Below are positions 333 through 49,227 of a stretch of 64,000 nucleotides of DNA, one piece after another. The DNA comes from Omnitrophica WOR_2 bacterium RIFOXYA2_FULL_38_17 (GTDB taxonomy: Bacteria; Omnitrophota; Gorgyraeia; Zapsychrales; Zapsychraceae), in NCBI GenBank assembly GCA_001805965.1, contig MHHG01000072.1, positions 429-64,428 on the forward strand, read 5' to 3'. The stretch's first letter is position 1. The number at the start of each line of letters is the position of its first letter. The position numbers were made by a program, and so were the translations under genes. A model generated the notes under the pieces. The model ran no database searches and had not been told where the DNA came from. It saw nothing but the letters and a program-made list of their open reading frames with translations.

Positions 333-608
333 ATGACTATAGAAGAGAGATTAAACGCCTTAGAAGAGCAAGTGGCCCATATGGCAGAAGCTTTAGGACA
401 TATAGATTCCATATTGTCTCAGCAGAATACTAATTTGAGAACAATTTATGAGGGGGCATCAATGAATATTTTTATAGTTGGTCATATTTTAAATGATAAA
501 TTAGAAATGAGTCGGGAAGATATTAATAGGCTAGTGGGCGATGCAAGAGCAAATCATCAGCAATTTGTTAATGAAACAAACGAAATACGTAAAATGTGGG
601 AGTTGTAA
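333..608 (+). CDS. hypothetical small coiled-coil protein (91 aa)
   Basis: AGGAGG Shine-Dalgarno lies 6-12 nt upstream of ATG at 333, which is an internal Met of the 285..608 ORF. Heptad-like [28 protein letters not shown]. No recognisable family. Confidence 0.4.
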
Positions 609-618
609 AAGTAGCAGG

Positions 619-1803
619 ATGTCTATGGGAGTATTTATGAAAATTGGAAGAAATGATCCCTGTCCCTGCGGTAGTGGGAAGAAATATAAAAAATGTTGTA
701 TTAATATGGGTGCGCAAACTTTTGATAATAGTAGTAGTGATTTTAATCAAAGACTCAAAGATATGTGTTTGTTAAGTATGGAGGATGTTAAGCAAAAGTA
801 TGGAGACATATTTAAACCAGAAGGAGAGATGAAAAAGATTTTTGGTGAGATCAATAAAATAACTTATCAAAAAATAAATATACCTTGTTTACACCCCAAT
901 AGGGACGAATGTTCTCCCGGCCCAATAAAGGCTCACTCTTTACCAAAATCTTTATTATCAAAGTTATCAGGTTCAACTAACCATGTGGCAATGTTCGGCG
1001 GGTCAATGCCGCTGTTTGATCCTCCAGAAATTACTATTAAACGTGTTGGAATAAAGAAAGCTACTATTTTTACTGGATTGTGTGCTTTTCATGATAATAA
1101 AATTTTTAAATTGATTGATACAGTTCCCCCTGAAAAATTTGACGATGAATATCAATTTTTGCTCTGCTACAGAGCGATATTAAAAGAATACTGCGCTAAG
1201 CTTTACCAGTACGAAGTTGCAGAGAAGCAATTTAATTTGGAAAATAACGAGTCACCTAAAGGGGTAGATAGCTTTATTGGCCAATACACCTACAGTTGCT
1301 ATTTGGGTTTGCACTATTCCACAGTCATGAGAAAAATTTTTGATAAAATCTTAAACACAAAAAAATTTTACGAGGAGCTAGAGTATGGCGTAAGAGAAAT
1401 AAATAAATTTGTTCCAATAGCTGTTAGTAGTGTTTTTACACCTATTCGTGATCGAAATAATGTTGTCATTAATGATTTATTAAGTGGTATGCCAAACTAC
1501 GTGTTTTTAACTGTGATTCCTTCCGATAAAAAAACATATGTGTTTTACGCGACTCTAAAGAGACAGACAGAAAAACTTCAAAGTTATATTCAACCTTTTA
1601 AGATGTTAAGCGAAGAGAGCCTTACAAATTATTTATCGGAAGCGATCCTTAGAGATATTGAAAACTTTGTTATGTCGTATTCCTATTGGGAAAGTTTTTC
1701 AGATTTAAAACAGAAAGAGATTCAAAAATTTTTTCATGAAACGATTATTGATAAAAAAGTTTTATATAATTCTTCTGTGCATAATTTGTTTACGAATAAT
1801 TAG
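619..1803 (+). CDS. SEC-C metal-binding motif protein with ~340-aa uncharacterised C-terminal domain
   Basis: N-terminal [18 protein letters not shown] is a canonical SecA C-terminal/YecA-type Zn-finger (SEC-C). Start placed at Met 619, after the upstream ORF stop at 608. Rest of protein has no motif I recognise. Confidence 0.55.
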
Positions 1804-1860: not shown

Positions 1861-2931
1861 AAATGTAGGTTCAAGGGTCTAGCGCAACACTTTGAACTGC
1901 TATAATGGCAGGGAAAGGAGTTGCTAATGGCAAAATATCAAAGACTTAAGTGTTTTGAACGAGAAGAAATATCTCGACAAGTTGCATCAGGAAAGAGCCT
2001 CAGGGAAGTAGCTAAAAATCTCCACAGATCTCCAAGCACCATAACCCGAGAGATAAATAAAAGTGTTGTTGATCGTAAATTTTATCGGGCATTTTTTGCA
2101 CAAGGTCGCAGCAACAAAATTCTTCATCAACGGCATAAGAATCGTAAGCTTGATAACAATCGTGCATTGCGCAAAATTGTACTGTTTTATTTAGCCAAGA
2201 AATGGTCCCCAGAACAGATTGCTAAAAGAATAGTTCTCTTGTATCCTAATGATATGGATATGCGAATTTCACACGAAACAATTTATTCTTATGTGTATAT
2301 ATTGCCGCGCGGGGAATTAAAGCGCGAGTTAGCAGCATGTTTAAGGCGTGGTCATGCTAATCGATATAAGAACAAGAAAGATAGACGAGATAGTGGCGCG
2401 ATACAGAATTATTTGAGTATTGAAGAAAGGCCCAAGGAAGTAGCTGATCGTATAGTTCCAGGACATTGGGAAGGTGATTTGATTATAGGTGGGAGTCATG
2501 CTTCAGCTATTGGGACGCTTGTTGAAAGAACAACCAGAATGACATTTTTAGTTAAGCTGGAGAACAGGTATGCGAGGAATGTCAGAAAAGCTTTTGCTAA
2601 GGAATTTCAATATTTGCCAAAAGGGTTGAGAAAAACATTAACATATGATCAAGGCTCTGAAATGGCAGAACATAAGATTTTCACAAAAGAAACAAATATA
2701 TCTGTTTACTTTGCGCATCCCAGTTCCCCATGGGAACGAGGAACAAATGAGAATACGAATGGCTTATTAAGGCAATATTTTCCTAAAGGAACTGATTTTA
2801 CAAAAATATCAAAAGCTCAGCTTAAAGCAGTGCAAGACGAGCTTAATGACCGTCCTCGTAAGGCATTGGAATGGTATACACCACACGAAAGATTTTCAGA
2901 GTTGTTGCGTTAGAAACTTGAATCTACCTTT
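1861..2931 (+). mobile_element. IS30-family insertion sequence (~1.07 kb) with imperfect terminal inverted repeats
   Basis: Left end AAATGTAGGTTCAAGGGTC (1861-1879) matches the reverse complement of 2913-2931 (AAAGGTAGATTCAAGTTTC) at 15 of 19 positions. These flank a single IS30-type transposase ORF. Confidence 0.55.
1921..2913 (+). CDS. IS30-family DDE transposase
   Basis: N-terminal HTH region, then PGHWEGDLIIGG (IS30 signature G-H-W-E-G-D) and a downstream DDE-type core (TYDQGSEM..., NENTNGLLRQY). 330 aa is the typical IS30 transposase size. Confidence 0.85.
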   Translation: MLMAKYQRLKCFEREEISRQVASGKSLREVAKNLHRSPSTITREINKSVVDRKFYRAFFAQGRSNKILHQRHKNRKLDNNRALRKIVLFYLAKKWSPEQIAKRIVLLYPNDMDMRISHETIYSYVYILPRGELKRELAACLRRGHANRYKNKKDRRDSGAIQNYLSIEERPKEVADRIVPGHWEGDLIIGGSHASAIGTLVERTTRMTFLVKLENRYARNVRKAFAKEFQYLPKGLRKTLTYDQGSEMAEHKIFTKETNISVYFAHPSSPWERGTNENTNGLLRQYFPKGTDFTKISKAQLKAVQDELNDRPRKALEWYTPHERFSELLR

Positions 2932-3081
2932 ATTGTTTTTTAAGATCTGCAGTGATTGAGACGAGCAGAGAATCTCAGCGGAAGTATAGTGTTAACTAGT
3001 CATAATATTGTAAAAACCTCTTGATATTGCTTTTTGTGAATGCTTGAATGATACTGTTCAATTGAAAGAATTTTATTAGAT

Positions 3082-4560
3082 ATGAAGCTTAAAAACAATA
3101 TTATTCCTTTTATTCTATTTCTGGGAAGCTTTTTTCTACGCCTTTCTTTAATAAGCAAAGGCCCCTTTAATGTAGATTGTTTAGACCTTGCCACTCAGGC
3201 AGAAAGGTCTCTCTCTGCTGGACAGCTTCAAAACATGTATGGATCAGGGTATCCAATGGTAGTTATTCTTAGCGCCGGTCTTATCTATATATTCAGAATG
3301 ATCAATATTGTAGATCCTGTCAGTGCTGTCAACATGATGAGTGTTGTAACAACTTCAATCTGTGTTATATTTTTTTATAAAATTGCAGAAAGAATAACAA
3401 GTCAAAAAGCTGCAATATTTAGCACTATTCTTTTTTCATTAAATCCAGCATTTTTAGGAAACTCTGTTTTTGGAATAAGTCATGGCCCAGCATTGCTCTT
3501 TTTATCTGTATCTATATATTTTCTGATACTTTTCAAAGAGGACAATAAGTGTCTAAAATATTTATTTATTTCAGCAATATTTTTCGGATTTACTGGAGCT
3601 GCACGACTTCAAGACATGATATTTCTGATCATACCAATAGCTTCATTGATATTGATCCCACTAAAACCTTGTAATATAAAAAGATTTTTGTTATTTTCTC
3701 TCATTGCTGCTGCTTTTTGCGCCTTGTTTTATCTTCCATATATTATAACTGATGCACGTGAAGATTACTTTAGTCAGCTAAGAAGCTATCGTGCAGATTC
3801 TTTGCCTGTTTATAGCCTAGAATTTATTAGATATACGTTCTTAGAGCTTCATGGTTACCTTTGTGAGTTATTGTTGCCTGTTGGATTGTGCATAAGCATA
3901 TGCGGTCTGTTTATTCTAGGGCGAAAAAAGAATTCCTACTCTATGTTTATATATCTATGGTTCTTTGTTTCTTTCTATATTCTAATCATTTTCTCAACAA
4001 CAAGGCCGAGGTTTCTTTTATTGTCGTTAATGCCTTTAAGTATTGCTGCAGGAGAATGTTTGTCTTATTTATTTAATTTTAATCGGGTATTCAAATTTGT
4101 ATCTATCATCATGCTTTGTCTTCTTTTTCGCATGGGGTTCCTGCCTACATACTATCTTCTTAAATTTCGCCATCGGGTTTCAGTTATCATTGAATATTGT
4201 AAATGGCTTAATAAAAATACTGAAAAGAACTCTCTTATTATTACTTGTGATGATAAACCATTTATACGTTATTATGGTTCTAGGGAAAGCTTAGCTAGGC
4301 CAATGAATACTTTTAGTATTAGTATAGAACAATTAGAAATGTTTAAAAAAGGGCTTGATAAAAAGATTGAAGAAGGTTATCCGGTGTATATCACTGATAT
4401 CGGTCTTTACGCCTATGCGCCAAAAGGAGAATTTACCTCTTTCTTTAGGCATAATTATAGAATTGTTCCTGTGGGAAAAAGTCTTTATGAAGATTGGCAC
4501 CAAGGGGCATCAGAAGATCAACTTTTCTACAATAATCTTTATAAAGTGACAAAGAATTAA
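3082..4560 (+). CDS. polytopic membrane protein, GT-C-fold glycosyltransferase-like (PMT/ArnT/GT39-like), paralog A
   Basis: ~370 aa of multiple predicted TM helices with a short first extracytoplasmic loop (FNVDCLDL), then a ~120-aa soluble C-terminal domain. That topology is typical of lipid-linked-sugar GT-C transferases. 492 aa, same length as the downstream paralog. Confidence 0.45.
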   Translation: MKLKNNIIPFILFLGSFFLRLSLISKGPFNVDCLDLATQAERSLSAGQLQNMYGSGYPMVVILSAGLIYIFRMINIVDPVSAVNMMSVVTTSICVIFFYKIAERITSQKAAIFSTILFSLNPAFLGNSVFGISHGPALLFLSVSIYFLILFKEDNKCLKYLFISAIFFGFTGAARLQDMIFLIIPIASLILIPLKPCNIKRFLLFSLIAAAFCALFYLPYIITDAREDYFSQLRSYRADSLPVYSLEFIRYTFLELHGYLCELLLPVGLCISICGLFILGRKKNSYSMFIYLWFFVSFYILIIFSTTRPRFLLLSLMPLSIAAGECLSYLFNFNRVFKFVSIIMLCLLFRMGFLPTYYLLKFRHRVSVIIEYCKWLNKNTEKNSLIITCDDKPFIRYYGSRESLARPMNTFSISIEQLEMFKKGLDKKIEEGYPVYITDIGLYAYAPKGEFTSFFRHNYRIVPVGKSLYEDWHQGASEDQLFYNNLYKVTKN

Positions 4561-4839
4561 AGTCGTGGTTTGATATAGGCAGGGAAAAGAGCCTTATTAT
4601 TTTAGGAAACACTTTTTGGTTCCCAAAGGGTTCCCATCTGATACATAAACAAACCTAAATATCTGGACAGTGTGAAAGTGGTCAAGCTCGACACGATTTG
4701 AGTTAAATGGTCGGTAATAAAGGGAATATCTCTGACTGTTTAGTATTATTAACTTTTATCAAAATTATACATAAATTGCTTGAAATTGGTTTTTCTTAGT
4801 GCTTGAATTATAAAAATTAACCTTGAAATTTTATTAATT

Positions 4840-6318
4840 ATGAGATACAAGCACATCATTATTCCATGTATTTTATTGTTGGGCAGCTTTATCCTCCGCC
4901 TTTTATTAATTAGCAAAGGGCCGTTTAGTATAGATTGCTTCGATCTTGCTCTTAAAGCTGAAAAAACTTATTCCTCTGGGCAACTTCAATATATGTTTGG
5001 CCCAGGATATCCTTTCGCTATCATTCTCGGGGCGATGTTTATTTGGCTGTTTAATGCATTTAATATTTCGTCTCCTATTTTTGCTGTGAATATGATGAGT
5101 GTTGTTACGGGTTCTTTAGCAGTTTTCTTTTTCTATAGAATTTCTGAAAGTATTACAGATCAGAAATCAGCAATATTTGGCACTGTATTATTTTCATTAA
5201 ACCCAATTGTATTAGGATATTCCGTATATGGGACCAGTAATGCACCAACCTTGCTTTGGTTATGTGTATCGGTTTATTTTTTGATAATTAGCAGGGAGAA
5301 TAAAGATAGTCTGAAAAATTTATTGCTCTCTGCTGTCTTTTTTGGTCTGCTAGGAGGGACACGCCTGCAAGATATGATCTTTCTATCTATACCGATCGCT
5401 TCCTTATTGTTTATTTCTAAAAAAGCATATCGAATACGAAGAATTTTTGTATTTTTTCTCACAGCTGTTTCTGTAAGTATTTTGTTCTATCTTCCATTTG
5501 TTTTGACAGATATGAGGATTGAATATTTAAGCCAGTTAACCAGATTTCGTGCTCTCAACGTACCTACTTATAGCTGGGATTTTACGAAAGAATCCTTCTT
5601 TAAAATTCATATTTACCTTCTTAACGCATTATTGCCAATAGGATTAATAACTAGCTTATATGGACTATTTATTCTGGTGCGCAACAAGAACCCATTCACT
5701 CTGTTTTTGTTACTATGGTTCTTTATTCCTTTCGAAATTACAATAAGGTTTGCTACGACTTATTCGAGATATTTATTAATACCAATTGTGCCTTTAAGTA
5801 TTGCGGCAGGGGCATGTTTGTCTTATTTGTTTAGCAAGGGCCGCATATTTAAAATGGCTTCTATTCTGATCCTTTGCCGTATTTTTTATTTTAGTTTTCT
5901 GCCCATGTATAAGCTCTTGGATTTTCGTCACCATCGTTCAGTTATTATTGAATATTGTAAATGGATCAATGGTATTACTGAGAAAAATGCTTTTATGATT
6001 AGCTGTGATGATAGAAGCTTTATTAATCATTACGGGGATAGGGAAATTATCTCTAGGCCAATGGATAGTTTTCATATCAGCAGGGAACAATTAGAAGAGT
6101 TTAAAACAAGGTTGGATGAAAAATTAGAAGAGGGTTATCCTGTTTATATAACTGCTATCGGGCTTTATGATTATTCACCGAATGGAGAATTTACTTCTTT
6201 CATGGAGCTTCACTATAGGATCAAATATGCGGGAAAAGGTCTTTATGAGGATTGGCACAGTGGAGCAGAAGACAGGAGAATTTTTTATAATTCTCTTTAT
6301 AAAGTGACAAAGAAATAA
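4840..6318 (+). CDS. polytopic membrane protein, GT-C-fold glycosyltransferase-like, paralog B (tandem duplicate of 3082..4560)
   Basis: Collinear with paralog A over the full 492 aa (MRYKHIIIPCILLLGSFILRLLLISKGPFSIDCFDLA... vs MKLKNNIIPFILFLGSFFLRLSLISKGPFNVDCLDLA...; C-termini ...YNSLYKVTKK vs ...YNNLYKVTKN). About 40 bp of upstream leader (TTGAAANNTTTTATTANNTATGA) is also duplicated. Confidence 0.45.
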   Translation: MRYKHIIIPCILLLGSFILRLLLISKGPFSIDCFDLALKAEKTYSSGQLQYMFGPGYPFAIILGAMFIWLFNAFNISSPIFAVNMMSVVTGSLAVFFFYRISESITDQKSAIFGTVLFSLNPIVLGYSVYGTSNAPTLLWLCVSVYFLIISRENKDSLKNLLLSAVFFGLLGGTRLQDMIFLSIPIASLLFISKKAYRIRRIFVFFLTAVSVSILFYLPFVLTDMRIEYLSQLTRFRALNVPTYSWDFTKESFFKIHIYLLNALLPIGLITSLYGLFILVRNKNPFTLFLLLWFFIPFEITIRFATTYSRYLLIPIVPLSIAAGACLSYLFSKGRIFKMASILILCRIFYFSFLPMYKLLDFRHHRSVIIEYCKWINGITEKNAFMISCDDRSFINHYGDREIISRPMDSFHISREQLEEFKTRLDEKLEEGYPVYITAIGLYDYSPNGEFTSFMELHYRIKYAGKGLYEDWHSGAEDRRIFYNSLYKVTKK

Positions 6319-6477: not shown

Positions 6478-9400
6478 ATGTTATTTAGGTACTATTTAAC
6501 TAAAAATAAGACCTTTTCTGGCTATGTAAATAAGTCCATCTGTTTGCTCGTATCTTTTATCTTTTTTACTGCAACTGTCTGTCCCGCGCAGGTGTTTGCT
6601 CAAGCTGTCTTAACGTTGCCGGCTCCCGGAACCATGGTTCCAACCTCTCCGGTTCATAACCCCGCAATGATCCTTGGGATGACCATTAATATGGATAATC
6701 CGTTTCAATTTGATTTTCTTGTGGATTCGGGAGATGAGAATCTTGAGGATGATGCCTTTCGAAAAGAAACAGGGAAGCTTATCAAATACTTTTTAACGGC
6801 ATTGACCGTGCCCGAAGAGGAAATGTGGGTTAATTTATCGCCTTATGAGAAGGACCGCATTATTGCAGATGGCCTTGGGGGAACCGAAATGGGTCGGGAT
6901 ATGCTCGCTCAGGACTATCTTTTAAAGCAGCTCTCTGCTTCATTGATGTACCCTGAAAATGATCTTGGCGCTGAATTCTGGGAAGACGTTTATGAGAAGA
7001 TGGGTGATGAATATGGGACAAAGGATATTCCCGTTGATACGTTCAATAAGATCTGGATCGTTCCAGAAAGGGCTGAGGTTTATGTCAACGGCGAGAGTGT
7101 TTATATTGTCGACAGCCATCTTAAGGTCATGCTTGATGAGGATTATCTTGCCTTAGAAGCTAATAAGAACACTATTGGGCATGGGCTTGGAGATATTAAG
7201 GAGGAAGACCTAAAGCAGCATTCAAAAGTATCGACCGATGCCATCCGCAAGATATTGATCCCGGCAATTGAAAAAGAGGTCAACGAAGGGCAAACATTTG
7301 CATCGTTGCGGCAAATATATAATTCACTGATTCTCGCGGCATGGTTCAAACAGAACCTCAAGAGCAGTATTTTAGGGCAGATCTATGTTGACCGCAGCAA
7401 ACTAAACGGCGTTGATATCGATGACAAAGATGCCAAGATAAGGATATACGAGCAATATTTGAGAGCTTTTAAAAAAGGCGTTTTTGACCTTGTCAAGGAT
7501 GAGTATGATTCGAGCACTCAGACGGTTATTTCCAGGAAGTATTTTTCCGGAGGGGAAAATTTTGCAAATATTGCGCAGGTTGTCCAGAATACAGGTTCTG
7601 ATAGTTCTATGTTGTCCTTCATGCGCAAGATCGTTGGCAGAACGATCAGGTCCGTAACAACTATAGTCAAAAGAGCCAGTCCCAAAAGATTGCCTGATGG
7701 GGAAGAACAAGAGAGCGAAGAACTTCTGGGACAATTGAATGAAATATTACAGAAAGCAGTTAAGGATAGGGCTGATCCTGGTGACTTTGAAAAAAAGCAG
7801 GAGGATCTCCAGGAGTATCAGCCGCCTCAGGCGCCGGAAGTTTCTTTTGAAGAGATCCCTTTACCGGAGGGTATACATACTTTTGACCTCATCACGTTCT
7901 TGCAGGCACAGAAACGTCTGAAGAGTTTATCTGCTGAGGATCTGGGTGCCCTTATGGTCTCTATGGGGATTCTTGATGAGGGCCAAACCTTGACGCGCGA
8001 TGACATAGACCAGCAATACGATATTATTTATAAGCATTTAGCTAAAGAAGGATACTCTGAAGAACTAGTCAGTCTGATCAAAGGTGAGGATGACCCGGAT
8101 GTTGCCTTGGATAGAACTGTCTCGTATCAAAGCGGAAGTTCGAAAATGCAGTCGATCATTGAAGCGGTCGCAAACAGCGTTGACGCCCTGGGAGGTTCCA
8201 TCGGCCAATTCGGAATGGGTGTCAAACAGATTTTAGCATGGCTGGAAGATGGGGAGCGTTTGGAGGTCGTATCTAAAAAGATAGATGATGTTCCCTATCG
8301 TTTGATCATAAGCAAGCAGGCGGGGAAGTTTAACATTGCAATAGATGCTATAAGCAGCGATGATTTTACCAGGGCGCTTGGAGGGGTTAAGTCTGAGAAA
8401 GGCACAGTCATCAATGTCGTCAAGAAAAGGGATGTTCCCACAGAAGGCGACGGAATTACATTGGAGCGTCTTGAGAAAATGGTACATAAGAGGTTTGCCT
8501 TTGTGAAATGGCTGAACCTTTGGACTCGAGGGGGTAATGCCGCTCTTAAGTTCGTAAACGGATGGGAGAGAAGAAGGGTCTTAGCTGGTTTGCAGAATTT
8601 GACGCATGAAAATATTGAGGAATCCGGAGCAGGCCGCGGTGAGAAAATGATCATTGTTTCGCTTGAGTCCCGTGCATTGAGGATCATGGATACAGGGGTG
8701 GGTATGGATTTTCAGGTTTTATCACGCATGTTCCTTCCGGTAGACGGTGGTGACAAAGAGAATAAGTCGCTGGATTCAGAAGAAGATATCAACGCGGAAA
8801 TCGAAAGAACAAGCATGGTCCATGATTGGCAAGGCCCGGTGACATCTGTTGTTTTTGCCAGAAATGGCGAGATGGTCATGGAAGTCCCTCTAAGTGAAGA
8901 GATCAGCGGTTCTATTCTAAAGGGTCAGTTGATGGTTGATCTTGGTAGATTGATACGTGTTTCTCCATCCCGTGACAAGATAGTCCTTCAGCGGAATCAG
9001 GATGAGGAGCCGTTAAAAAGAGGTTTTGTACATCTTGCGCAAGAGGTTATTCAAGGTAATATCTCTGATCAGGAGAAGATCCAGATCATCAACACGCTGA
9101 TAGGTGGTTTGGAAGGGATCGCTCCGGGAAATAAATCAGTTTCCGACATAATTGACGGGGTTAAGATCGCGCTGAAGAAAGAGACGAAGGCTTTTGTTAC
9201 TAAACTCAAGAGTAAAGGCATAATTCTTTTGCCGCTTCGCGGAGGCTATGATAATTTTCGTATTCCTGAAGGTAGAACGGTTGCTTTCCTTAATGAGAAC
9301 CTTTTCGATTGGAGAGGATCTGAATTGAAACAGCTCAAAGAGAATATGGGGGCTAAGGTTCTGCCCCTGGTCCTTGAGGGGAAAGACCCGGATACGGGGA

Positions 9401-12400
9401 TAGTGATACGTAATATTATTCTTGCTGCACCATATAAACAAAGCATTTGGAGTGGGTATCAAGGGAGAGATCTTCAGGAATTTGTTAAGATCGTTTCTCA
9501 GCAGGAATTGCCGGTCATAAAAGGTGACGGCTATGTTGTAGTTCCATCGCAGGTCAGCGAGATGATCGCCACGCTCTCGCAAGATAGCGATAGGATGATA
9601 GAGATCCTGGAGTTATTGAAAATTTTAACTGAAGAGGATACGGCCAACAGTTATGAATTTGAGATCAAGAAAACGGAAGCCTTTGCCGCCTTTGGAGCTG
9701 ATGCCGCTTCTGAAGGTACAGAAGGTCGCCAAACAAAATGGGGGAAAGAAATAGAATTCTTGACTTGGTTTAAAGAGGATGAGCCGACAGCTGAAATTAT
9801 ATCGACGCCATTCGGCCCTCAAAAGACCGAAAAAACGGTTACAGACACTATGCGTGCTTTCAGAGCGGAAAAAGTTGATTTTGATCGAATTTTTCGCGGG
9901 CAAGATATCTTTGCATCAAAACAGGATTTTGTGACAATGAAGAGCGCAAAAGTGGAGTTTTCTCAAGTCTCCCAAGTTGTTTTTACGAATATTTTTGTGA
10001 GGGATCAAGAAAAGCCCAGGATCGGTGAATATTTGGATTCATTGGGTAAAAGTGTAAGGAACCAGGAAGGGGCAAAATTTAGTTTATCAAATAAAGGCAC
10101 TGAAGATAAGGCAATGCTTAGCTTATCAAGCAAGATCGCTATTGAAGCATTAAGGAAATATCCTTTAGCAGAAATTGAAGGTATCAGCGAGTTTATGTTC
10201 GGTAATGATAAATATGTTGTCCGAAAGTATGACAGCGTGAATGGACCCCTACATATTTTGATAGAAAAGGACGGGAAGGATATTAAAAAATTCTGGGCGC
10301 TGGCTTTGCCTTTGGATGTTGAATCATGTCTGATAGATAAAGGAAGAGTGATCTTCAAGGAATCCGAAGGAAACAGGGAGGTCTATGTGGATCTTTTTGA
10401 TCCGGAAGGGGGCTTCCTGGTGAGCTTGAATGTTGAACCAGAAAAGAAGAAAGAGTGGTTAGTGAAACTGGAAAGCAGCTATGCTCAATTGCTCGAGCTT
10501 GTTCCTGATGATGTCATCGAAGGAAATCATTCAGAGTTCAAAGATATTTTCACACGTCTCAATGCGCTCATAAAAGAAAGGGCTGTTTATATTATAGAGG
10601 GTGGTGTAACGCCAGGCCAACAGGTCGCTGCCATTGATGCACTGGTTGATGAGGTGTCCAATGATCTTATTCGGATCGGCGCTACTGTAAAGGAAATGTG
10701 GGAAAATTTCGGGGATGAGAATATATTGCCCCTAAAAGCTCATGAGAGGGGAAGTTTCTTCACGCAGTTCATCAAGGTTCTTGTGCAGGCCGCGACGCTG
10801 GGCCAGTTGGGAGAAAAAGAGGATCTTGAGCAGATGGTTCGGATTATGGGACACGGATTTGTAGTTAAAAGCTCCGCTGATATTGAATCCGCTAAGGCTA
10901 TCGACAGGTTGGTTCAGGCGCTCAGGAAAAAGAATATGAAGGACTTCCCGGAATTATCTAAGATCGTGACGACGCTTCAGCTGACCTTGCGTAAAAGGGA
11001 TGCCGGGGCTGCGGGCCATTTGATAGATAAGATCAATATGATCCTCAATAGTGAGGAGTCGGGAAAATATCTGGAATTGATCTATAAAGAGTTTCAGAGT
11101 GCGGAGTGGATTAAAATAAATAGTGAGATAAGCGCGGGAAAATTTCAGGATCTTGATCGACTGGGGCGGTTGCTGATATTTCTGTCAAGCCGTTCGGACC
11201 TTGTTGCGGAAGATATGAGAAGTGAAGAAGATGATATGAATTGGGCAGTTGTTCCCGAACCTATGGGATTGGAGCAGCTTGATGTGTGGAGCTCATCGAA
11301 AAGCGGAGTCAGGACGGTCGATGAAGTTGTCCAAAAGCAGTCACAGATAAGGGCTTTGGACAATGAGGCTGTTGAGCGAGTTCGCCAGAATATACGATCG
11401 AAGGTCGAAGGATTAAGAGAGTCCGGTGGATATGCGGCTGAATTGATGCAGAATTTTCTGGATGCGATGGTACTGCTGAGGCAGGGCAAGACCGAACAAA
11501 AAGGAAAGCTCCAGGTAAAGTTCTATTATGATAAGGAAAGAGATGAATTTGTTGAAGAGATCAATGACAATGGTCCGGGAGCGCCTGTTGGAAAAGAGCT
11601 GGCGCTTCTTATCAGGAAATCGAACAAGTATGAATTGAACAAGGATCAGCAGGGCCTTGAAGGTCAGTTGGCGGGATTCTTTGGAACGGGTAAATTTACC
11701 ATGTATGCCGGCGCTGATAAAGTTGAGATAATTTCCCGGGGTGAAGAGAATGTCTATGTGTTCGTTCTTAAGGTTGACCGCAAGAACGGAAAGGTCTTTT
11801 TGGAAAAAGTAGGCCAGCGCCAGAGGCGTGAAGGGGAAGAAACAGGCGTGATGATCCGGAGGATCAAGGAAGCTGTATCTATTATTCCATCACTTGAGCA
11901 GATGTTTGCCGAATCTGCCTGGAAAATAAATGCGGGGTTTGCGGTAACGGATAAGGACAGCCTTGATATGGAGATCAATCATGCGATCCATCCGGTTGAA
12001 GTGGCAGGGCGCAAGGCGCTTTATCAGGGAGCATTTTATGCGCCCAATTTATCGACATCCGAAGAACATGGTGAGGAGCGTATAGATCATGGCATATTCA
12101 GGATATGGGAGCATAATGATCCCGAAGTTCCTTCACAGATTGTTGATAAGAAAGGCCTGCGCGTTGAGGATATCGCCCTTAAAGAAAAATTCCTCGAACT
12201 GGTCCCGCAGAGAATGCGTGATATGTTGGATAAAATGCATATAGTTATACAGATACCTCTAGCTCTTTATGAAAGCCGCAATGGATTTGCCCAGGAGGAT
12301 GAATATCTGCCCTTTATTCAAAGGCAGGTCGCTGTTGGGGTGTACCGGGCGCTGGTTAGCAAGTTTCTCTCGGATGAAAGCTTTACTATGGACAGGATCA

Positions 12401-13482
12401 TATCGAGCGATTTTGAAACGGGAATGACATACAATATGGCTTTTAACAGGCAGGCAAATGATCTTTATGTCGGAGAACGTCATTTATTTGATATTGTTAA
12501 AGACCTTAATTCTGAGCTGTCTGATCCAAGGCTGGGGGCAGTTACTAACGGGGAATTGGATGTTCTTAAAGGATGGTTTGATGGGGAGGGAACTGATCTC
12601 GAGAAGGGTTCAATAAAACAATTTTTATCTTTATTGGAGGTTGATTATCTGAATATGGAAAGCATTACTGAACGGGCGAGTATTGTAATGCGGAGAATTA
12701 AGGCGCTCAAGGATGTCGCGCCGCAATTAGCGGAGAATCTCGCTGGCAATACGGGGCGTTCCGTTGAAGATGCGGATAAGCTTAAGGACCGCTATTCTAA
12801 CGAGAGAAAAGCTCAGGCAGCTAGAAGTAAGGTGATTTCTGAAAACTCTCCTTCCTATTGGAGGGAGGCCCCGGTGACTGAAGAAGAAAGAGACCTCTTG
12901 AGGATCGGTGAGGAATTTTCAGCGATATTCGGGATCGAACAGGTTTGGTTAGCCAAAAGCGATGCGCCTTTCAGCGGTTTGTTCTTCGGGAGCGGAATGA
13001 TGCTGAATAAAAGCATTGCGGGGAAAATAGCATCTGAAGGTGGATTTTCTGAAAAGGTCGAAGTGATAGCGCATGAATTAGGGCATTTATTGCAGGCTGC
13101 AAAGCGTTCTGCCGGCAGGGTCGAAATGGTTGCTACCGAACAGCATGGTTTTAATGATTGGACCCATGATGATGAGTTCTCCGAAATGATGAAATGGGTC
13201 TCGTTCTTTATTCTATCAAAACAGTCTCCCGCAGCTAATCAAGCTGATCGGGGTAATACAGATACTACTGTAGAACAAGTAGAATCAGCCCCTGGTGGTA
13301 TCGATTTTAATACGCAGATGTTGAACCTTGAAAATACCGGTAAGCAGTTTCAGTACGATGTTCCGCAATTGTCACCTGAGCAAATGGAATATCTCTCTAT
13401 TGATGGATTGGTCCCGGTTATCATAAATATTTCTCCGGTTACAAACTTGCCGCTGCTTTTGGGATATAATATTGAGGAATAA
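6478..13482 (+). CDS. giant secreted multidomain protein (2334 aa): signal peptide, conserved N-module, two HSP90/sacsin-like GHKL segments, HExxH zincin motif, conserved C-module
   Basis: Single uninterrupted ORF. N-terminal hydrophobic segment ...LLVSFIFFTATVCPAQVFAQA is signal-peptide-like. At ~11440-11830, ELMQNFLDA (N box), EINDNGPGA (G1 box DxGxG), GFFGTGKFTMY (G2 box) and KVEIISRGEENVYVF sit in canonical HSP90/GHKL order and spacing. Degenerate copy at ~8150-8350 (IIEAVANSVDA..IGQFGMGVKQ). HELGH at 13072-13086. N- and C-terminal modules are shared with the 911-aa ORF at 46492..49227. Confidence 0.85.
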   Translation: MLFRYYLTKNKTFSGYVNKSICLLVSFIFFTATVCPAQVFAQAVLTLPAPGTMVPTSPVHNPAMILGMTINMDNPFQFDFLVDSGDENLEDDAFRKETGKLIKYFLTALTVPEEEMWVNLSPYEKDRIIADGLGGTEMGRDMLAQDYLLKQLSASLMYPENDLGAEFWEDVYEKMGDEYGTKDIPVDTFNKIWIVPERAEVYVNGESVYIVDSHLKVMLDEDYLALEANKNTIGHGLGDIKEEDLKQHSKVSTDAIRKILIPAIEKEVNEGQTFASLRQIYNSLILAAWFKQNLKSSILGQIYVDRSKLNGVDIDDKDAKIRIYEQYLRAFKKGVFDLVKDEYDSSTQTVISRKYFSGGENFANIAQVVQNTGSDSSMLSFMRKIVGRTIRSVTTIVKRASPKRLPDGEEQESEELLGQLNEILQKAVKDRADPGDFEKKQEDLQEYQPPQAPEVSFEEIPLPEGIHTFDLITFLQAQKRLKSLSAEDLGALMVSMGILDEGQTLTRDDIDQQYDIIYKHLAKEGYSEELVSLIKGEDDPDVALDRTVSYQSGSSKMQSIIEAVANSVDALGGSIGQFGMGVKQILAWLEDGERLEVVSKKIDDVPYRLIISKQAGKFNIAIDAISSDDFTRALGGVKSEKGTVINVVKKRDVPTEGDGITLERLEKMVHKRFAFVKWLNLWTRGGNAALKFVNGWERRRVLAGLQNLTHENIEESGAGRGEKMIIVSLESRALRIMDTGVGMDFQVLSRMFLPVDGGDKENKSLDSEEDINAEIERTSMVHDWQGPVTSVVFARNGEMVMEVPLSEEISGSILKGQLMVDLGRLIRVSPSRDKIVLQRNQDEEPLKRGFVHLAQEVIQGNISDQEKIQIINTLIGGLEGIAPGNKSVSDIIDGVKIALKKETKAFVTKLKSKGIILLPLRGGYDNFRIPEGRTVAFLNENLFDWRGSELKQLKENMGAKVLPLVLEGKDPDTGIVIRNIILAAPYKQSIWSGYQGRDLQEFVKIVSQQELPVIKGDGYVVVPSQVSEMIATLSQDSDRMIEILELLKILTEEDTANSYEFEIKKTEAFAAFGADAASEGTEGRQTKWGKEIEFLTWFKEDEPTAEIISTPFGPQKTEKTVTDTMRAFRAEKVDFDRIFRGQDIFASKQDFVTMKSAKVEFSQVSQVVFTNIFVRDQEKPRIGEYLDSLGKSVRNQEGAKFSLSNKGTEDKAMLSLSSKIAIEALRKYPLAEIEGISEFMFGNDKYVVRKYDSVNGPLHILIEKDGKDIKKFWALALPLDVESCLIDKGRVIFKESEGNREVYVDLFDPEGGFLVSLNVEPEKKKEWLVKLESSYAQLLELVPDDVIEGNHSEFKDIFTRLNALIKERAVYIIEGGVTPGQQVAAIDALVDEVSNDLIRIGATVKEMWENFGDENILPLKAHERGSFFTQFIKVLVQAATLGQLGEKEDLEQMVRIMGHGFVVKSSADIESAKAIDRLVQALRKKNMKDFPELSKIVTTLQLTLRKRDAGAAGHLIDKINMILNSEESGKYLELIYKEFQSAEWIKINSEISAGKFQDLDRLGRLLIFLSSRSDLVAEDMRSEEDDMNWAVVPEPMGLEQLDVWSSSKSGVRTVDEVVQKQSQIRALDNEAVERVRQNIRSKVEGLRESGGYAAELMQNFLDAMVLLRQGKTEQKGKLQVKFYYDKERDEFVEEINDNGPGAPVGKELALLIRKSNKYELNKDQQGLEGQLAGFFGTGKFTMYAGADKVEIISRGEENVYVFVLKVDRKNGKVFLEKVGQRQRREGEETGVMIRRIKEAVSIIPSLEQMFAESAWKINAGFAVTDKDSLDMEINHAIHPVEVAGRKALYQGAFYAPNLSTSEEHGEERIDHGIFRIWEHNDPEVPSQIVDKKGLRVEDIALKEKFLELVPQRMRDMLDKMHIVIQIPLALYESRNGFAQEDEYLPFIQRQVAVGVYRALVSKFLSDESFTMDRIISSDFETGMTYNMAFNRQANDLYVGERHLFDIVKDLNSELSDPRLGAVTNGELDVLKGWFDGEGTDLEKGSIKQFLSLLEVDYLNMESITERASIVMRRIKALKDVAPQLAENLAGNTGRSVEDADKLKDRYSNERKAQAARSKVISENSPSYWREAPVTEEERDLLRIGEEFSAIFGIEQVWLAKSDAPFSGLFFGSGMMLNKSIAGKIASEGGFSEKVEVIAHELGHLLQAAKRSAGRVEMVATEQHGFNDWTHDDEFSEMMKWVSFFILSKQSPAANQADRGNTDTTVEQVESAPGGIDFNTQMLNLENTGKQFQYDVPQLSPEQMEYLSIDGLVPVIINISPVTNLPLLLGYNIEE

Positions 13483-18442: not shown

Positions 18443-18583
18443 GAGAAATATAGTGGTTTGACGAAATGGCAAAACCGTTGTAAAGCGGTGACGCAAAGCC
18501 ATAGGGTCCTCAGCAAGAGGATAGCCTGGTTACCGAATCAAGTTAAGAGAACGGGCCTATCCTTTTTTGGATAGGTTTTTTTT
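18443..18583 (+). ncRNA. candidate small RNA (~140 nt) bracketed by promoter-like element and intrinsic terminator
   Basis: Region has no ORF over 6 codons. It contains hairpins GGTTTgacgaaatggcAAAACC and TCCTCagcaaGAGGA, and ends in CCTATCC-TTTTTT-GGATAGG plus a T8 terminator. Identity unknown. Confidence 0.2.
18556..18583 (+). terminator. rho-independent terminator
   Basis: CCTATCC / GGATAGG 7-bp stem, 6-nt loop, followed by TTTTTTTT. Confidence 0.6.
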
Positions 18584-39786: not shown

Positions 39787-41679
39787 ATGGATTTTAAAGG
39801 TTTATTAAAAGAACAGATAGCGAAGCGTTTTGGGTTAAAAGATAATATTCCTGACAAATTAATGCCTTTTATTGAAGAGGTTGATAGCTTGTATGGGCAG
39901 ATGGCGAAGGAGCATACAGGTAAAGATGCGCAGATCCAAGAATTAAACAAAGAGATAGAAGCTTTGAAGCTGCAATTAGAAAGATATACGATTTCTTCGC
40001 TTGGATCCGAAGAAGGTTTATGGGATTGGAATTTTGACACTAATGAGATTTATTATTCAAAGAACTGGAAGAAGATCATTGGCTATGAAGATGATGATAT
40101 CACGGGGACGCCTGATGAATGGTTCGCAAAGATACATCTTAATGATGTTGATCGGGTAAAAAAAGTTTTTTCAGTTAATAAGAAAAATCCAAATTCTACA
40201 GTCAGCACCACTTATCAAATCCTGCATTCTGATGGAGAATATCGTTGGGTTACAACAAAAGGAACCTTCCTTGATAATAAGGATGGAAGAATCAACAGGA
40301 TCGTTGGATCCCATAAGGATATTACGCTTCAGAAAGTAGCGGAGCATCAATTGCTTCATGATGCGCTTCACGACAATCTTACCGGCTTAGCTAATAGAGC
40401 TTTATTTTTTGATAGATTGACTTTTTTCATTGAACGTGCAAAGAGAGTAAAAGACTATAAATATGCAGTTGTATTTATGGATTTGGATAGATTCAAGGTC
40501 ATTAATGATAGTTTAGGCCATTTATTTGGAGATCAACTGCTTATTCAAATAGCCGAGATTTTGAAAAAGAATATGAGAGGTAACGACACAATTGCTCGAT
40601 TAGGAGGAGATGAGTTTACTATCCTTTTAGATAATGTTGAGGATATTGGAGATGCAATACGGTTTTCAAAACGTATTCAAAGAGAGATAACAACATCATT
40701 TAATATTAAAGGCCATGATGTTTTTGTGACAGCAAGTATTGGCATTGCAATAAGTACGCCAGAAATAAAGAGGCCGGAAGAGATATTGAGAAATGCAGAT
40801 ATATCAATGTATCAAGCAAAAGCAAAGGGAAGATCCAGGCACGAAGTATATCGACCCGAAATGCATACGACGGCCTTAAATCTCTTTTATCTGGAAAAAG
40901 ATTTAAGAAATGCAATTGACAATAAAGAATTTGAACTATATTTTCAGCCGATCATTTCGTCAGAAAGTGGAAAAATTGTACGATTGGAATCATTGATCAG
41001 ATGGAATCATCCTGAAAGAGGGCTTGTTAATCCATTGTCATTTATACCGCTGGCTGAGGAAACGGGTATGATTATAGATATTGGCGAGTGGGTGTTGAAA
41101 CAATCTTGTGTCGAGAGCAAGAAGTGGCAGGATTTATTTAATATTGATATTGGGGTTTCTGTCAATTTTTCTGCAAGACAGTTTCAATTTCAGAATATTG
41201 CTAAATTGATCCAAAAAGTATCAAAAGATACAAATATTAATCTTCATAATTTGGAGATAGAGATCACTGAAACAACGGCAATGAAGAATATTGATTATAG
41301 CGTTAAAGTTCTAAATGAGTTGAAGTTATTGGGTCTAAAAATTTCAATTGATGATTTCGGGATCGGATATTCTTCTTTAAGCTGTATAAATATTTTGCCG
41401 ATAGATTCAATTAAGATTGATCGTACGTTCACAAGGAATATTGGAGGTGACACAAAGAACGTAATAATTGTAGAGAATCTTATATCAATGGCCCATAATC
41501 TTAATTTAAAGGTTGTGGCAGAAGGAGTAGAAACTCCGGAACAGCTTCAATTCTTAATGGAAAAGAAGTGCGATGAATTGCAGGGATACTTGTTTAGTAA
41601 GCCATTGTCGCGTGAAAAGATGTATGAATTTATTGAAAAACAAAACAATGGATATGATCTCAAGGCTTACTATAAATAG
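39787..41679 (+). CDS. PAS-GGDEF-EAL protein (c-di-GMP cyclase/phosphodiesterase)
   Basis: N-terminal coiled coil plus PAS/PAC (WDWNFDTNEIYYS...YRWV). GGDEF active site RLGGDEFTIL. EAL domain with LESLIRWNHP (EAL signature position), DDFGIGYSSL, KID. Confidence 0.85.
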   Translation: MDFKGLLKEQIAKRFGLKDNIPDKLMPFIEEVDSLYGQMAKEHTGKDAQIQELNKEIEALKLQLERYTISSLGSEEGLWDWNFDTNEIYYSKNWKKIIGYEDDDITGTPDEWFAKIHLNDVDRVKKVFSVNKKNPNSTVSTTYQILHSDGEYRWVTTKGTFLDNKDGRINRIVGSHKDITLQKVAEHQLLHDALHDNLTGLANRALFFDRLTFFIERAKRVKDYKYAVVFMDLDRFKVINDSLGHLFGDQLLIQIAEILKKNMRGNDTIARLGGDEFTILLDNVEDIGDAIRFSKRIQREITTSFNIKGHDVFVTASIGIAISTPEIKRPEEILRNADISMYQAKAKGRSRHEVYRPEMHTTALNLFYLEKDLRNAIDNKEFELYFQPIISSESGKIVRLESLIRWNHPERGLVNPLSFIPLAEETGMIIDIGEWVLKQSCVESKKWQDLFNIDIGVSVNFSARQFQFQNIAKLIQKVSKDTNINLHNLEIEITETTAMKNIDYSVKVLNELKLLGLKISIDDFGIGYSSLSCINILPIDSIKIDRTFTRNIGGDTKNVIIVENLISMAHNLNLKVVAEGVETPEQLQFLMEKKCDELQGYLFSKPLSREKMYEFIEKQNNGYDLKAYYK

Positions 41680-46491: not shown

Positions 46492-49227
46492 ATGTTTAGC
46501 AAAGCTATAAAAAAAGTTATAGTATCGTTAATGGTTTTTGCATTTTTAGGGGCGCAAGTTTTTCCACTTTGTCCCGTAGATGCTAATGCCCAGAGTGCGC
46601 TTGTTTTGCCTTCAGCCGGAGCTATGATCCAAACAAGCCCTCCATTCAGTCCCGCAGTGATCCAAGGCATTACTTTATATCCAGAAAATCCTCTAAAGTT
46701 TGATTTTATAATTGATAAAGGTGATACCTATTTTGAATCAGAAGAATTTCAGGATGAAGCTAATAGGCTTATCAATTATTTTATGGCGTCACTGACTGTT
46801 CCTGAAGATGAGATGTGGGTCAATCTTTCACCATATGAGAAAGATAGGATTATTGCCGATGGTTTAATTCAAACGGAGCTAGGACGTGATATGCTTGCGC
46901 AGGATTATTTATTGAAACAGATAACAGCTTCTTTTATGCATCCTGATGGAAGTGTCGGGGCTGAATTCTGGAAGAAAATATATGAAAAGGCACAAGCCCT
47001 TTATGGGACGACAGAAATGCCTGTTAATACCTTTAATAAAGTTTGGATCGTTCCTGAAGAGGCGGTTGTTTATGTGCATGGAACAAGCGCTTTTGTTGTT
47101 GAGAGCCACCTGAAAGTCATGTTAGAAGGTGATTATATGGCTCTTGACAATAATTCGTTCAATAAAAAAATAGGAACGGACCAAATAGAAAAGAGAGATG
47201 TCGAAAAGATCAGTGATGTTTCATCTGCTATTGTCCGGGATGTAATCCTTCCAGAGCTTGAAAAAGAAGTCAATGAAGGAGAGAACTTTGCTACTCTTCG
47301 CCAGATGTTCAATTCGATGATACTTGCAACATGGTATAAGCAGAATCTGAAAAATAGCTTGTTTGGAGAAGCATATATTAACAGGAATAAAGTTTCTGGA
47401 ATTGACCTTGCAGAGCGGGGCGTTAAGGAAAAGATATATGACCAGTATGTAGAAGCTTTTAAAAAGGGAGTTTATGATTTCGTAAGGGAAGAATATGATG
47501 ATGCTACTCAAGAGATAATTCCTAGAAAGTATTTTTCAGGTGGGATTGTCGGACAGAAATCTGTAAAAGATACTTCTATGTTGGGAGACAATGACAAAAT
47601 AGGATCATTGTTGGATGGTGAAAATAAAGAGAAAGTTACAGTTGAGATAAAAGTTGGCGATAGAGATGTAAGTGATGCTACGAGAGCCTCTGATGCAGTT
47701 GTTTCAGACAATAGAGAGGAGTATCCACTTAGAGTTGAGGGGGATACCGGAGATTATACTTATTCTTTATCATTTGTTAATCCTAAAAGAAGAAGACCGA
47801 CAATGGTTCCAAATGCGATAGAGGTAAACAGAAAGCTTACCAGAAAAGAATTGGATGAATATAATGAACTTTCTTCCGAAGAAAAAGCAAAAAGAAGAGT
47901 TGATAGCGGCATAGAGAAGGTTGATATTGATTTGAGAAGAATCATTCATGAGAAATTTGAGGGATTTTTAACCAGGACTGATTATGTTCAGAATGTTCTT
48001 GGAGATATTGACTCTGACGTATATTTTCAAGATATAAAACATATAGACATAGAGTTTATTAGATTATCAGAGAGAGTAGTTTTCAATGTAAAAATATACA
48101 CTAAAGATGGAGGATCTGAGCCTAGTGAGGAGTTTATAGCTAAGGTAGTAAGGAAAAGAAATCAGCTTGAAGCGGGCGAGAACGAATTTGAATTTGAGCA
48201 GATTGCAGATCAGCAGGTGGAAGCTTTTGAAAAACTTAAAAGTAGAGGAGTAAGATTTGTCCCAAGGTATGCAAAAACTGTTGATGGTGTTTATTATGAG
48301 GAGGTTATTAGGGGAAAATCAATTTTGCAATATGCTGCAAGTGAAGGGTTGACAACTGAAGAGATTGAAGAGATTGCATATACGTGGCTGACTATTTGGA
48401 GGCATGTTAAGGATTCTTCGGATCCTACTTCGTCTGATCCCAAAATGCTTGACCTGAATCCTGGCAATATCATGATAAGGGAAGGGGAAGACCTTCTTGA
48501 CAGTCATGTTGTTATTGATATATTTAGCACCTCAAAGGGTAGTTATAATCCCAAGAGCCTGGTTAGAGATTTGTTGAGGTTTTATGTCTACGGCGGTAAT
48601 CCTGCAGTGACAGTCAAATCAAAAAAGTCAAATGATATTGAGCCTGTACTCGAGGGTATTTATAGAGGGCTTGATTATGACAGGGCGCAAACGATAAAGT
48701 TCCTTACGAGCATAACTCATTCGCCTGTTGTGCCTTTTAGGCAGTGGAGCGGGAAGGGGCAGGACCCAAGGATCAGTGATCTTGAGTTTTATGCAGTGAT
48801 TGAACAGTTTTTAAAAAGGGAATTTGGTTATCAAGAAACTACAACTGCTCTTGAAAGATATAACAATATAGAAAATTTTAAAGGGAATCAAAGAAAGGAG
48901 CGCGCTATTGCAAATATGAGAGCAAGAGCAGAGAATGCGACAGGGGAAAATTCAAGAAATTCATCAGATAGTATTGCGGCTCGCGGAACAGAATCTCCTA
49001 CAGCAAACCCTGGTGGTATCGACCTTGATGCTGATAATATGAACTTAAAAGTTGAAGGGAATATGTTCAATTTTCAATTGCCTGATGATTTTGAGGGCAT
49101 TGATATTAATGCAGAAGGATTTTTGCCTGTCATAATAAATATCTCACCAATTATCGATATGCCGCTTCTTCTTGGAGTTGCAGAAGATGAGGAATACCAG
49201 CCGCAGTTAAGTTATTCATTAAATTGA
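46492..49227 (+). CDS. secreted modular protein (911 aa): conserved N-module, atypical protein-kinase-like core, conserved C-module; paralog of 6478..13482
   Basis: Signal peptide ...FLGAQVFPLCPVDANA. Residues ~40-390 are ~65% identical to the giant protein N-module (e.g. MWVNLSPYEKDRIIADGL, GRDMLAQDYLLKQ, KVWIVPEEA, HLKVMLEGDY, LEKEVNEGENFATLRQ). Core has IAKVVRK (beta3 Lys-like), LDLNPGNIMI (catalytic-loop-like HxDLxPxN) and VIDIFS (DFG-like). C-terminus PGGIDLD...LPVIINISPIIDMPLLLG is shared with the giant protein. Confidence 0.8.
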   Translation: MFSKAIKKVIVSLMVFAFLGAQVFPLCPVDANAQSALVLPSAGAMIQTSPPFSPAVIQGITLYPENPLKFDFIIDKGDTYFESEEFQDEANRLINYFMASLTVPEDEMWVNLSPYEKDRIIADGLIQTELGRDMLAQDYLLKQITASFMHPDGSVGAEFWKKIYEKAQALYGTTEMPVNTFNKVWIVPEEAVVYVHGTSAFVVESHLKVMLEGDYMALDNNSFNKKIGTDQIEKRDVEKISDVSSAIVRDVILPELEKEVNEGENFATLRQMFNSMILATWYKQNLKNSLFGEAYINRNKVSGIDLAERGVKEKIYDQYVEAFKKGVYDFVREEYDDATQEIIPRKYFSGGIVGQKSVKDTSMLGDNDKIGSLLDGENKEKVTVEIKVGDRDVSDATRASDAVVSDNREEYPLRVEGDTGDYTYSLSFVNPKRRRPTMVPNAIEVNRKLTRKELDEYNELSSEEKAKRRVDSGIEKVDIDLRRIIHEKFEGFLTRTDYVQNVLGDIDSDVYFQDIKHIDIEFIRLSERVVFNVKIYTKDGGSEPSEEFIAKVVRKRNQLEAGENEFEFEQIADQQVEAFEKLKSRGVRFVPRYAKTVDGVYYEEVIRGKSILQYAASEGLTTEEIEEIAYTWLTIWRHVKDSSDPTSSDPKMLDLNPGNIMIREGEDLLDSHVVIDIFSTSKGSYNPKSLVRDLLRFYVYGGNPAVTVKSKKSNDIEPVLEGIYRGLDYDRAQTIKFLTSITHSPVVPFRQWSGKGQDPRISDLEFYAVIEQFLKREFGYQETTTALERYNNIENFKGNQRKERAIANMRARAENATGENSRNSSDSIAARGTESPTANPGGIDLDADNMNLKVEGNMFNFQLPDDFEGIDINAEGFLPVIINISPIIDMPLLLGVAEDEEYQPQLSYSLN

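Follow-up and report, generated by a model that had tools for sequence, protein, structure and literature searches.

What do two tandem genes for polytopic membrane proteins contribute to an uncultured bacterium, and do they serve the giant secreted protein encoded directly downstream of them? The question is raised by a 64,000-nucleotide stretch of DNA (here called the window) from Omnitrophica WOR_2 bacterium RIFOXYA2_FULL_38_17 (assembly GCA_001805965.1, contig MHHG01000072.1, positions 429 to 64,428), in which two 492-residue proteins, copies A and B, precede a protein of 2334 residues. Bacteria of the phylum Omnitrophota are uncultured and often ultra-small, they may live as predators or parasites, and their surface biology is essentially unknown. 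Copies A and B probably arose by lineage-specific tandem duplication within an Omnitrophota family that is inherited vertically and consists of inner-membrane glycosyltransferases with a GT-C_A-like (PMT_2/ArnT-like) fold, where GT-C denotes the glycosyltransferase C type. The proposal that they form a dedicated modification system for the 2334-residue protein is not supported. The features on which the argument turns are as follows, in window coordinates.

3082..4560, + strand: conservative GT-C paralog (copy A), 492 aa (open reading frame (ORF), PMT_2, family hidden Markov model (HMM), residue table)
4840..6318, + strand: divergent GT-C paralog (copy B), 492 aa (ORF, PMT_2, TMEM260-like, AlphaFold2 model, Foldseek, ratio of nonsynonymous to synonymous substitution rates (dN/dS))
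3004..3081, + strand: leader of copy A, within the duplicated unit (blastn, match to locus L056, leader alignment)
4762..4839, + strand: leader of copy B, counterpart of 3004-3081 (MAFFT, blastn, match to locus L056)
4562..4778, no strand: unique spacer between the copies, 217 nt, A/B similarity absent
6478..13482, + strand: 2334-aa neighbor protein with a signal peptide, an N-module of ~360 aa, cargo, and a C-module of ~80 aa (ORF and homologs)

The duplicated pair and its fold

A preliminary description of this DNA had presented the two proteins as collinear paralogs of 492 residues, and its coordinates proved exact. The proteins align end to end without a gap, with 285/492 identical residues (58%) and 74% positives (BLASTP), and their genes align from 3020-4561 to 4779-6319 with 68.4% identity over 1561 columns (blastn). 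Because the DNA match starts upstream of both ATGs, the duplicated unit takes in the leader. The duplication of the leader, likewise described before, is real, but its shared length is about 60 to 80 nt and not ~40 bp, and the string quoted for copy B carried two surplus T's; it correctly reads TTGAAATTTTATTAATTATGA, which aligns to copy A with a gap of 3 nt. When the ~80 nt located 5′ of each ATG were aligned globally, the score was 25, compared with a mean of −0.7, a standard deviation of 4.1, and a maximum of 12 among 500 shuffles. The B-like gene of locus L056 resembles both copies from 78 nt 5′ of the ATG onward (positions 3004 and 4762), and the blocks CTTGAWATTG, GTGCTTGAAT, and TTGA..AATTTTATTA are conserved within the leader. 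The spacer at 4562-4778 showed no A/B similarity by blastn and folded no better than shuffled sequences. An Rfam search of the locus returned no RNA family match, and scans for terminators and promoters around the genes gave nothing that stood out from shuffled sequence (z-score of the hairpin at 6333-6349, −0.6). At least six public assemblies contain the pair and the giant gene with 99.9% identity, including GCA_001805995.1 and an 822-kb scaffold from the Rifle aquifer, and the ORFs of both copies are intact in six assemblies.

Both copies exceed the gathering cutoff of the Pfam family PMT_2 (PF13231; 26.1 bits), copy A with 35.2 bits and copy B with 40.4 bits. The TMEM260-like family (PF11028; DUF2723), with a gathering cutoff of 24.2 bits, is matched by copy B at 37.1 bits and by copy A at 21.5 bits. 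Neither PF02366 (PMT) nor the MIR domain was matched by either copy at E ≤ 1, and of the curated NCBIfam models copy A matched none and copy B only NF047440, below the cutoff (E = 4e-5). The AlphaFold2 model of copy B (predicted local distance difference test (pLDDT), 83.2; predicted template modeling score (pTM), 0.83) has roughly a dozen helices in the membrane and then, at residues ~368-492, an alpha/beta domain of ~125 aa, in agreement with the soluble C-terminal domain of ~120 aa proposed in the preliminary description. When the model was compared with the Protein Data Bank (PDB) by Foldseek, all 28 matches at E ≤ 1e-3 were GT-C enzymes (STT3, AglB, PglB, ArnT, ALG9/12, DPY19, and AftA), with Pmt4 falling just short of this threshold at E = 1.5e-3. 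Beyond the GT-C enzymes, two chain families of the glycosylphosphatidylinositol (GPI) transamidase matched at E = 0.0035 to 0.027 and other unrelated folds at E ≥ 0.25. The lowest E-value was obtained for STT3 (8age_A; E = 1.8e-9), and the best size-matched superposition for ArnT (5f15; template modeling (TM) score, 0.63/0.58). In a comparison of the family profile with PDB sequences, AglB matched at E = 7.7e-4 and ArnT at E = 4.4e-3 (marginal). A transporter or other non-glycosyltransferase fold was not found. The GT-C-type polytopic topology is borne out by the Pfam, model, and Foldseek results, and the prediction that A and B are GT-C-type polytopic membrane glycosyltransferases is supported.

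An acidic motif in the first loop had also been proposed, and it corresponds to D32. In the copy B model, this residue opens the first loop helix, 10 residues past the first membrane helix (residues 4-22). Of 133 family members, 98% keep it, as do 43/43 sequences from the loci compared here (3 loci from genomes, 39 usable ones from metagenomes, and the window). An essential first-loop Asp is characteristic of GT-C/PMT-clan enzymes, for example, ArnT D55, Pmt1 D77, and TMTC1 D52 (PMC7801869), and we infer by analogy that D32 is the equivalent of this catalytic residue. The residue after D32 is Cys, so that the loop-1 motif reads DC and not DE or DD.

A family of Omnitrophota and its two copies

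The family to which A and B belong was defined by an exhaustive HMMER search; a word-indexed homolog search gave just 5 to 10 relatives. At E ≤ 1e-30, the family includes 299 representatives of clusters at 50% identity. The best 150 of the 299 are mostly ~500 aa long and match almost all of the profile, the C-terminal domain included, to which no Pfam model corresponds. A scan of reference-genome contigs with narrow peptide patterns yielded 2 loci only, and a scan of viral contigs yielded no family locus. The relatives in reference genomes are labeled Candidatus Omnitrophota, and every match with an organism name belongs to Omnitrophota or Omnitrophica. This is a distinct family of ~500-aa proteins that is apparently confined to the Omnitrophota and has its own C-terminal domain of ~125 aa.

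Residues G27, N84, R175, R310, and Y436 are invariant in the family, D32, D78, R363, H364, and D390 are conserved in at least 90% of members, and a YEDWHxG motif is conserved in the C-terminal domain. Copy A, which matches the family HMM at E = 3.8e-174, keeps all of the family-conserved residues, including D32, D78, N84, H134, R175, D178, R310, R363, H364, and D390. Copy B carries the substitutions D78S and H134N, at positions 88% and 86% conserved in the family, and keeps D32, N84, R175, D178, R310, R363, H364, and D390; D78 is missing in just one other of the 43 locus sequences. The same two substitutions are present in P0002, a relative 89% identical to copy B. Since the synonymous divergence between A and B (dS = 1.19) is near saturation, selection was judged from copy B and its 89% relative alone, for which dN/dS is 0.053/0.366 = 0.14. 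From these sequence comparisons, copy B is predicted to be a working, diverged copy under purifying selection and not a pseudogene.

The family is normally represented by a single copy amid housekeeping genes, with smpB, rlmN, accA, and biotin genes recurring as neighbors. Tandem pairs were found at three of the other loci, and the identity between partners is 58% in the window, 53% in L014, 48% in L036, and 33% in L035. In the window, L014, and L036, the partners are each other's closest relatives, and these duplications are therefore independent. The most frequent operon-like partner of the family is a secreted protein of ~180 aa with an STI1/HOP DP domain, which is encoded directly 3′ of the GT-C gene in 8 loci (L007, at 11544..12044, L020, L023, L030, L035, L036, L047, and L051), across gaps of 21 to 68 nt. 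Each member combines a signal peptide and a small beta-rich domain with a variable linker of low complexity and the STI1/HOP DP repeats. This protein is a candidate partner or acceptor of the GT-C family. It is not found at that position in the window, where the DP-domain HMM gave only a weak match to a DUF5684 gene (E = 7e-5). The 169-aa gene that follows the giant gene was considered as a conserved downstream partner and rejected; elsewhere, the partners are the STI1/HOP DP-domain proteins.

A mechanism can be drawn from the fold and from known GT-C enzymes (e.g., PMC7801869 and PMC11127046). The N terminus would be cytoplasmic, and the first membrane helix would lead into an extracytoplasmic loop in which the conserved D32 activates or positions the acceptor. 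R175, R310, and R363-H364, as candidate ligands, would hold the phosphate of a polyprenyl-phosphate-sugar donor. The C-terminal alpha/beta domain, in which D390, Y436, E470, and W472 are conserved, may aid acceptor selection; a Kyte-Doolittle scan for membrane helices is too coarse to show on which side of the membrane this domain lies. Most likely, then, A and B would take a sugar from a polyprenyl-phosphate carrier and, via D32, pass it to an extracytoplasmic acceptor. The donor would be made and flipped by genes encoded elsewhere: no polyprenyl-phosphate sugar synthase (GT2) or flippase was detected among the scanned window ORFs of at least 120 aa or among the recurrent neighbors in the 43 loci, and the scanned window ORFs included no arn genes near A and B. 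Because copy A keeps the ancestral residues and copy B is altered at two of them yet evolves under purifying selection, we read the pair as sub- or neofunctionalized, in which case the copies may differ in donor or acceptor specificity or may form a heteromer like that of Pmt1 and Pmt2. The chance that the acceptor is a periplasmic or secreted protein is a little short of even. This option is slightly favored over an envelope glycolipid or polysaccharide, as with ArnT or Gtr enzymes, because the recurrent partners are secreted and no arn- or gtr-type context is present; the glycolipid or polysaccharide is nonetheless a serious candidate, and some other acceptor would be rather surprising.

The giant neighbor and the competing explanations

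The gene for the 2334-aa protein begins 159 nt after copy B on the same strand. The protein has more than 2200 homologs, with which it has mainly the N-module, and also the ~80-aa C-module, in common; all named homologs are labeled Omnitrophota or Omnitrophica. The motifs WVNLSP, QDYxLKQ, and FNKxWIxP are invariant in the N-module, and the C-module bears the motif GGIDFN...PVIxxIxP. Across the class, these two modules flank unrelated cargo (PGI, PGK, M48, UbiB, GHKL, and GDE/GH77), often enzymes of cytoplasmic type, and a second such protein is encoded in the window at 46492..49227. The N-module is matched by no Pfam model, and its AlphaFold model (pLDDT, 68) has no fold match in the PDB (best E = 0.11); the class was not described in the Omnitrophota literature searched. 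The cargo of the giant protein contains two GHKL/HSP90-like ATPase N-box motifs (SIIEAVANSVDA and ELMQNFLDA; residues ~550-570 and 1652-1788), a weak HSP90-family match at residues 1652-1788, and a metalloprotease-like HELGH motif (HExxH) near the C terminus, at residue 2199. More distant homologs of the giant contain HATPase_c_3. Ser and Thr together make up 10.6% of the protein and at most 33% of any 30-residue window, so that no Ser/Thr-rich tract is present.

The preliminary description had suggested that the pair O-mannosylates this neighbor. The shared strand, the short gap, and the signal peptide of the giant are consistent with a dedicated system, and PMT_2 and TMEM260-like are families of protein O-mannosyltransferases. 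In addition, the giant's closest relative (71% identity; L010) has a PMT_2-type gene two genes upstream, encoding a 417-aa protein and accompanied by a radical-SAM/SPASM gene (L010 716..3087). That PMT_2 gene, however, is not orthologous to A and B (no tblastn match; hhalign probability, 56%), and the other five of the six giant relatives examined (53%, 53%, 35%, 35%, and 32% identity) have no GT-C neighbor, so that the arrangement of two GT-C genes and a giant gene, whose conservation the preliminary description had proposed to check, is not kept. Conversely, the gene for the 89% relative of copy B occurs singly on a 3.9-kb contig, flanked by a PNPOx gene and a GlgE-like gene, with neither a giant gene nor copy A close by. 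Each copy also has its own conserved leader, the family normally stands alone among housekeeping genes, and the giant lacks a Ser/Thr-rich tract. Because the searches for synteny, Ser/Thr content, and donor or flippase genes were all negative, a module in which the two GT-C proteins modify the giant is unsupported, and we regard it as very unlikely. Remodeling of the envelope is a possible but doubtful alternative, in which enzymes resembling ArnT or Gtr would add a sugar to lipid A, the lipopolysaccharide core, or a surface polysaccharide and the duplication would diversify the surface. ArnT is the best size-matched structure and a marginal sequence match, A and B share its layout of a polytopic domain followed by a periplasmic C-terminal domain of ~125 aa, and the core-genome context fits a housekeeping role in the envelope. 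Partners of the arn or gtr type (sugar-modifying enzymes, GT2, or flippase) are nevertheless lacking beside A and B and among the recurrent neighbors, no NCBIfam ArnT model is matched, and the commonest operon-like partner, the STI1/HOP DP secreted protein of 8 loci, points to protein biology and away from that of lipids.

Several points weigh against the reading of A and B as vertically inherited duplicates that are both active through D32. That D32 and the Arg and His residues share an active site is deduced from where they lie in the sequence, from their conservation, and by analogy; the D78S and H134N substitutions could mean that catalysis is impaired in copy B; a second, unrelated PMT_2 gene lies upstream of the closest relative of the giant (L010); and a gene for an N/C-module protein is the immediate same-strand neighbor of the GT-C gene in the window, L008, L035, and L036 (4 of ~43 loci). 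The last of these would be expected if the family glycosylated the N- or C-module of such "bookend" proteins, with tandem copies arising beside particular substrates. The cargos of the adjacent proteins are unrelated, and therefore the modules alone are common to them. The four adjacent genes account for 4 of the 6 N/C-module genes among 430 flank ORFs, and they include all 3 tandem-duplicate loci with usable flanks (p ~0.001, a post hoc hypergeometric estimate). Organism-named matches of both families all belong to Omnitrophota or Omnitrophica, the best Foldseek matches are catalytic subunits of oligosaccharyltransferases, and the invariant N-L-S of the N-module lies in a loop modeled with low confidence. 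On the other hand, only a few cases underlie this post hoc test. At the background density of one N-module gene per 30 to 75 kb, a rough Poisson estimate for at least 4 adjacent cases in ~66 neighbor slots is 0.01 to 0.14, and ~39 of the 43 family loci have no such neighbor. Neither the WWDxG motif nor the large C-terminal domain of the oligosaccharyltransferases is present in the family, and a Pro directly follows the sequon. The adjacency signal is thus weak and suggestive only, leaving room for a link to this protein class. We consider it unlikely that the family acts on the modules, and similarly improbable that the GT-C family and the N/C-module proteins form one phylum-confined system. 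In such a system, the module would be glycosylated for export, anchoring, or protection, with the WVNLSP loop and the GGIDFN C-module as candidate sites, and tandem duplicates of the A/B type may be copies recruited beside particular substrates. Decay of copy B, or its lack of catalytic activity, which would leave copy A as the sole enzyme, is highly improbable. Of the two copies, only B has changed at the two conserved positions, one of which (D78) is lost in a single other locus sequence, but its ORF is full length without indels relative to A, its other conserved polar and charged residues listed above are retained, and purifying selection acts between it and a relative that bears the same two substitutions. 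The position of that relative as a single gene on its contig argues that copy B functions alone.

Tandem duplication within a vertically inherited GT-C family therefore remains the probable explanation of the pair. A core GT-C family with its own C-terminal domain offers a handle on how the Omnitrophota decorate their envelope or secreted proteins, and the recurrent, independent tandem duplications suggest that its specificity is still diversifying. If true, the link to the bookend proteins would tie the biogenesis of the long secreted proteins typical of the phylum to a step of glycosylation. At present, the result is a well-supported, ordinary gain in annotation for two uncharacterized transferases of the PMT_2 type.

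Other features of the window and known systems compared

The remaining features include the surroundings of the pair and a gene that the preliminary description had grouped with it.

1921..2913, + strand: IS30-family transposase (HTH_38 and rve), ~150 nt upstream of copy A, with the element end near 2928
541..1803: 420-aa protein whose sole recognizable domain is a SEC-C zinc motif at the N terminus, just upstream of IS30
18458..18537, + strand: cyclic di-GMP-I riboswitch (66 bits, E = 1e-10)
39787..41679: GGDEF-EAL protein
60130..61710, + strand: protein with multiple membrane helices and TPRs in a TMTC-like layout, unrelated to A/B by sequence

The pair had been described as lying between an insertion sequence region and the giant gene. 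Both flanks are real, but the IS30 element is variable among strains. It is partly present in GCA_001805995.1, and the other assemblies from the same population match the window only from 2929 onward, with smpB upstream instead of IS30. Because the element is missing from these assemblies, the pair is not the cargo of an island. No clear terminal inverted repeats of the element were found. The segment at 541..1803 is not placed there in the other same-population assemblies. The riboswitch lies upstream of a MORN-repeat gene and a gene with a pilin-like N-terminal methylation motif (18696.. and 19427..).

The gene at 60130..61710 had been described as a third GT-C gene with TPRs. The gene and its C-terminal TPRs stand (TPR_1, 74.6 bits, with many other TPR models at residues ~400-520), but its membrane domain has no match to the Pfam families PMT, PMT_2, or DUF1736 even at E ≤ 10. 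The motifs NWDD after the first membrane helix, SKPAAVT, and DRYTY resemble those of TMTC proteins (compared with PMC7801869), and judged from its sequence the label "TMTC-like" is plausible. A relationship to the A/B family was rejected (hhalign probability, 5%). A weak BLAST match connects the gene to a PMT/PMT_2 protein, P0010 (E = 1e-3), and further weak links lead to TPR membrane proteins in L035 (10942..12768, − strand) and L047 (10043..11668, − strand), both of which are encoded close to a GT-C family gene. The third gene and these two relatives have in common a membrane domain without a Pfam model and a TMTC-like DD motif. In the window, the third gene follows lgt (59271..60107).

Among known systems, ArnT (GT83; 5ezm/5f15) is similar to A and B in fold, size, and layout, in that a polytopic domain is joined to a small C-terminal domain in the periplasm. 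Its superposition has the best size-normalized TM score, its profile match is the marginal one reported above, and its catalytic Asp lies in the first periplasmic loop (PMC7801869). Differences are the low identity (~9 to 11%), the lack of an NCBIfam ArnT match and of an arn operon context, the D-C loop motif in place of D-E, and a C-terminal domain that is family specific and without a Pfam match. By Foldseek E-value, the oligosaccharyltransferases STT3, AglB, and PglB (GT66) rank first (1.8e-9 to 8.5e-7), and AglB is the best match of the profile to PDB sequences. However, their target-normalized TM scores are only 0.34 to 0.50, the A/B family is ~200 to 350 aa shorter, and the large C-terminal domain with WWDxG is missing from A and B, which have YEDWHxG instead.

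The PMT_2/TMEM260-like/GT39 O-mannosyltransferases resemble the pair in their Pfam matches (PMT_2 in both copies and TMEM260-like in copy B) and in that the gene stands without partners for donor synthesis, and the pairing of A and B recalls the Pmt1-Pmt2 heterodimers. A and B differ from this group in lacking PF02366 and MIR, in having DC where the group has DE, and in having no evident Ser/Thr-rich substrate next door; the Foldseek alignments to Pmt1 and Pmt4 cover ~260 columns in most entries, with one Pmt4 entry at a TM score of 0.54. As stand-alone genes, A and B resemble actinobacterial Pmt, unlike gtr or arn operons. In the three-component Gtr systems (GtrA/GtrB/Gtr*, GT136), a GT-C enzyme acts together with a polyprenyl-phosphate sugar synthase and a flippase (PMC11127046). 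The resemblance to A and B lies in a GT-C protein presumed to use a polyprenyl-monophosphate sugar at the inner membrane's outer face, and the difference lies in the absence of a synthase or flippase beside A and B in the window or among the recurrent neighbors of the family. Finally, the Leptospira LA_3751/LA_3752 family (NF047440), itself uncharacterized, is the sole NCBIfam match, to residues 66-360 of copy B; the score of 22.6 bits against a cutoff of 200 means that copy B is not a member, and the numbering in the family name suggests that there, too, the genes are adjacent.

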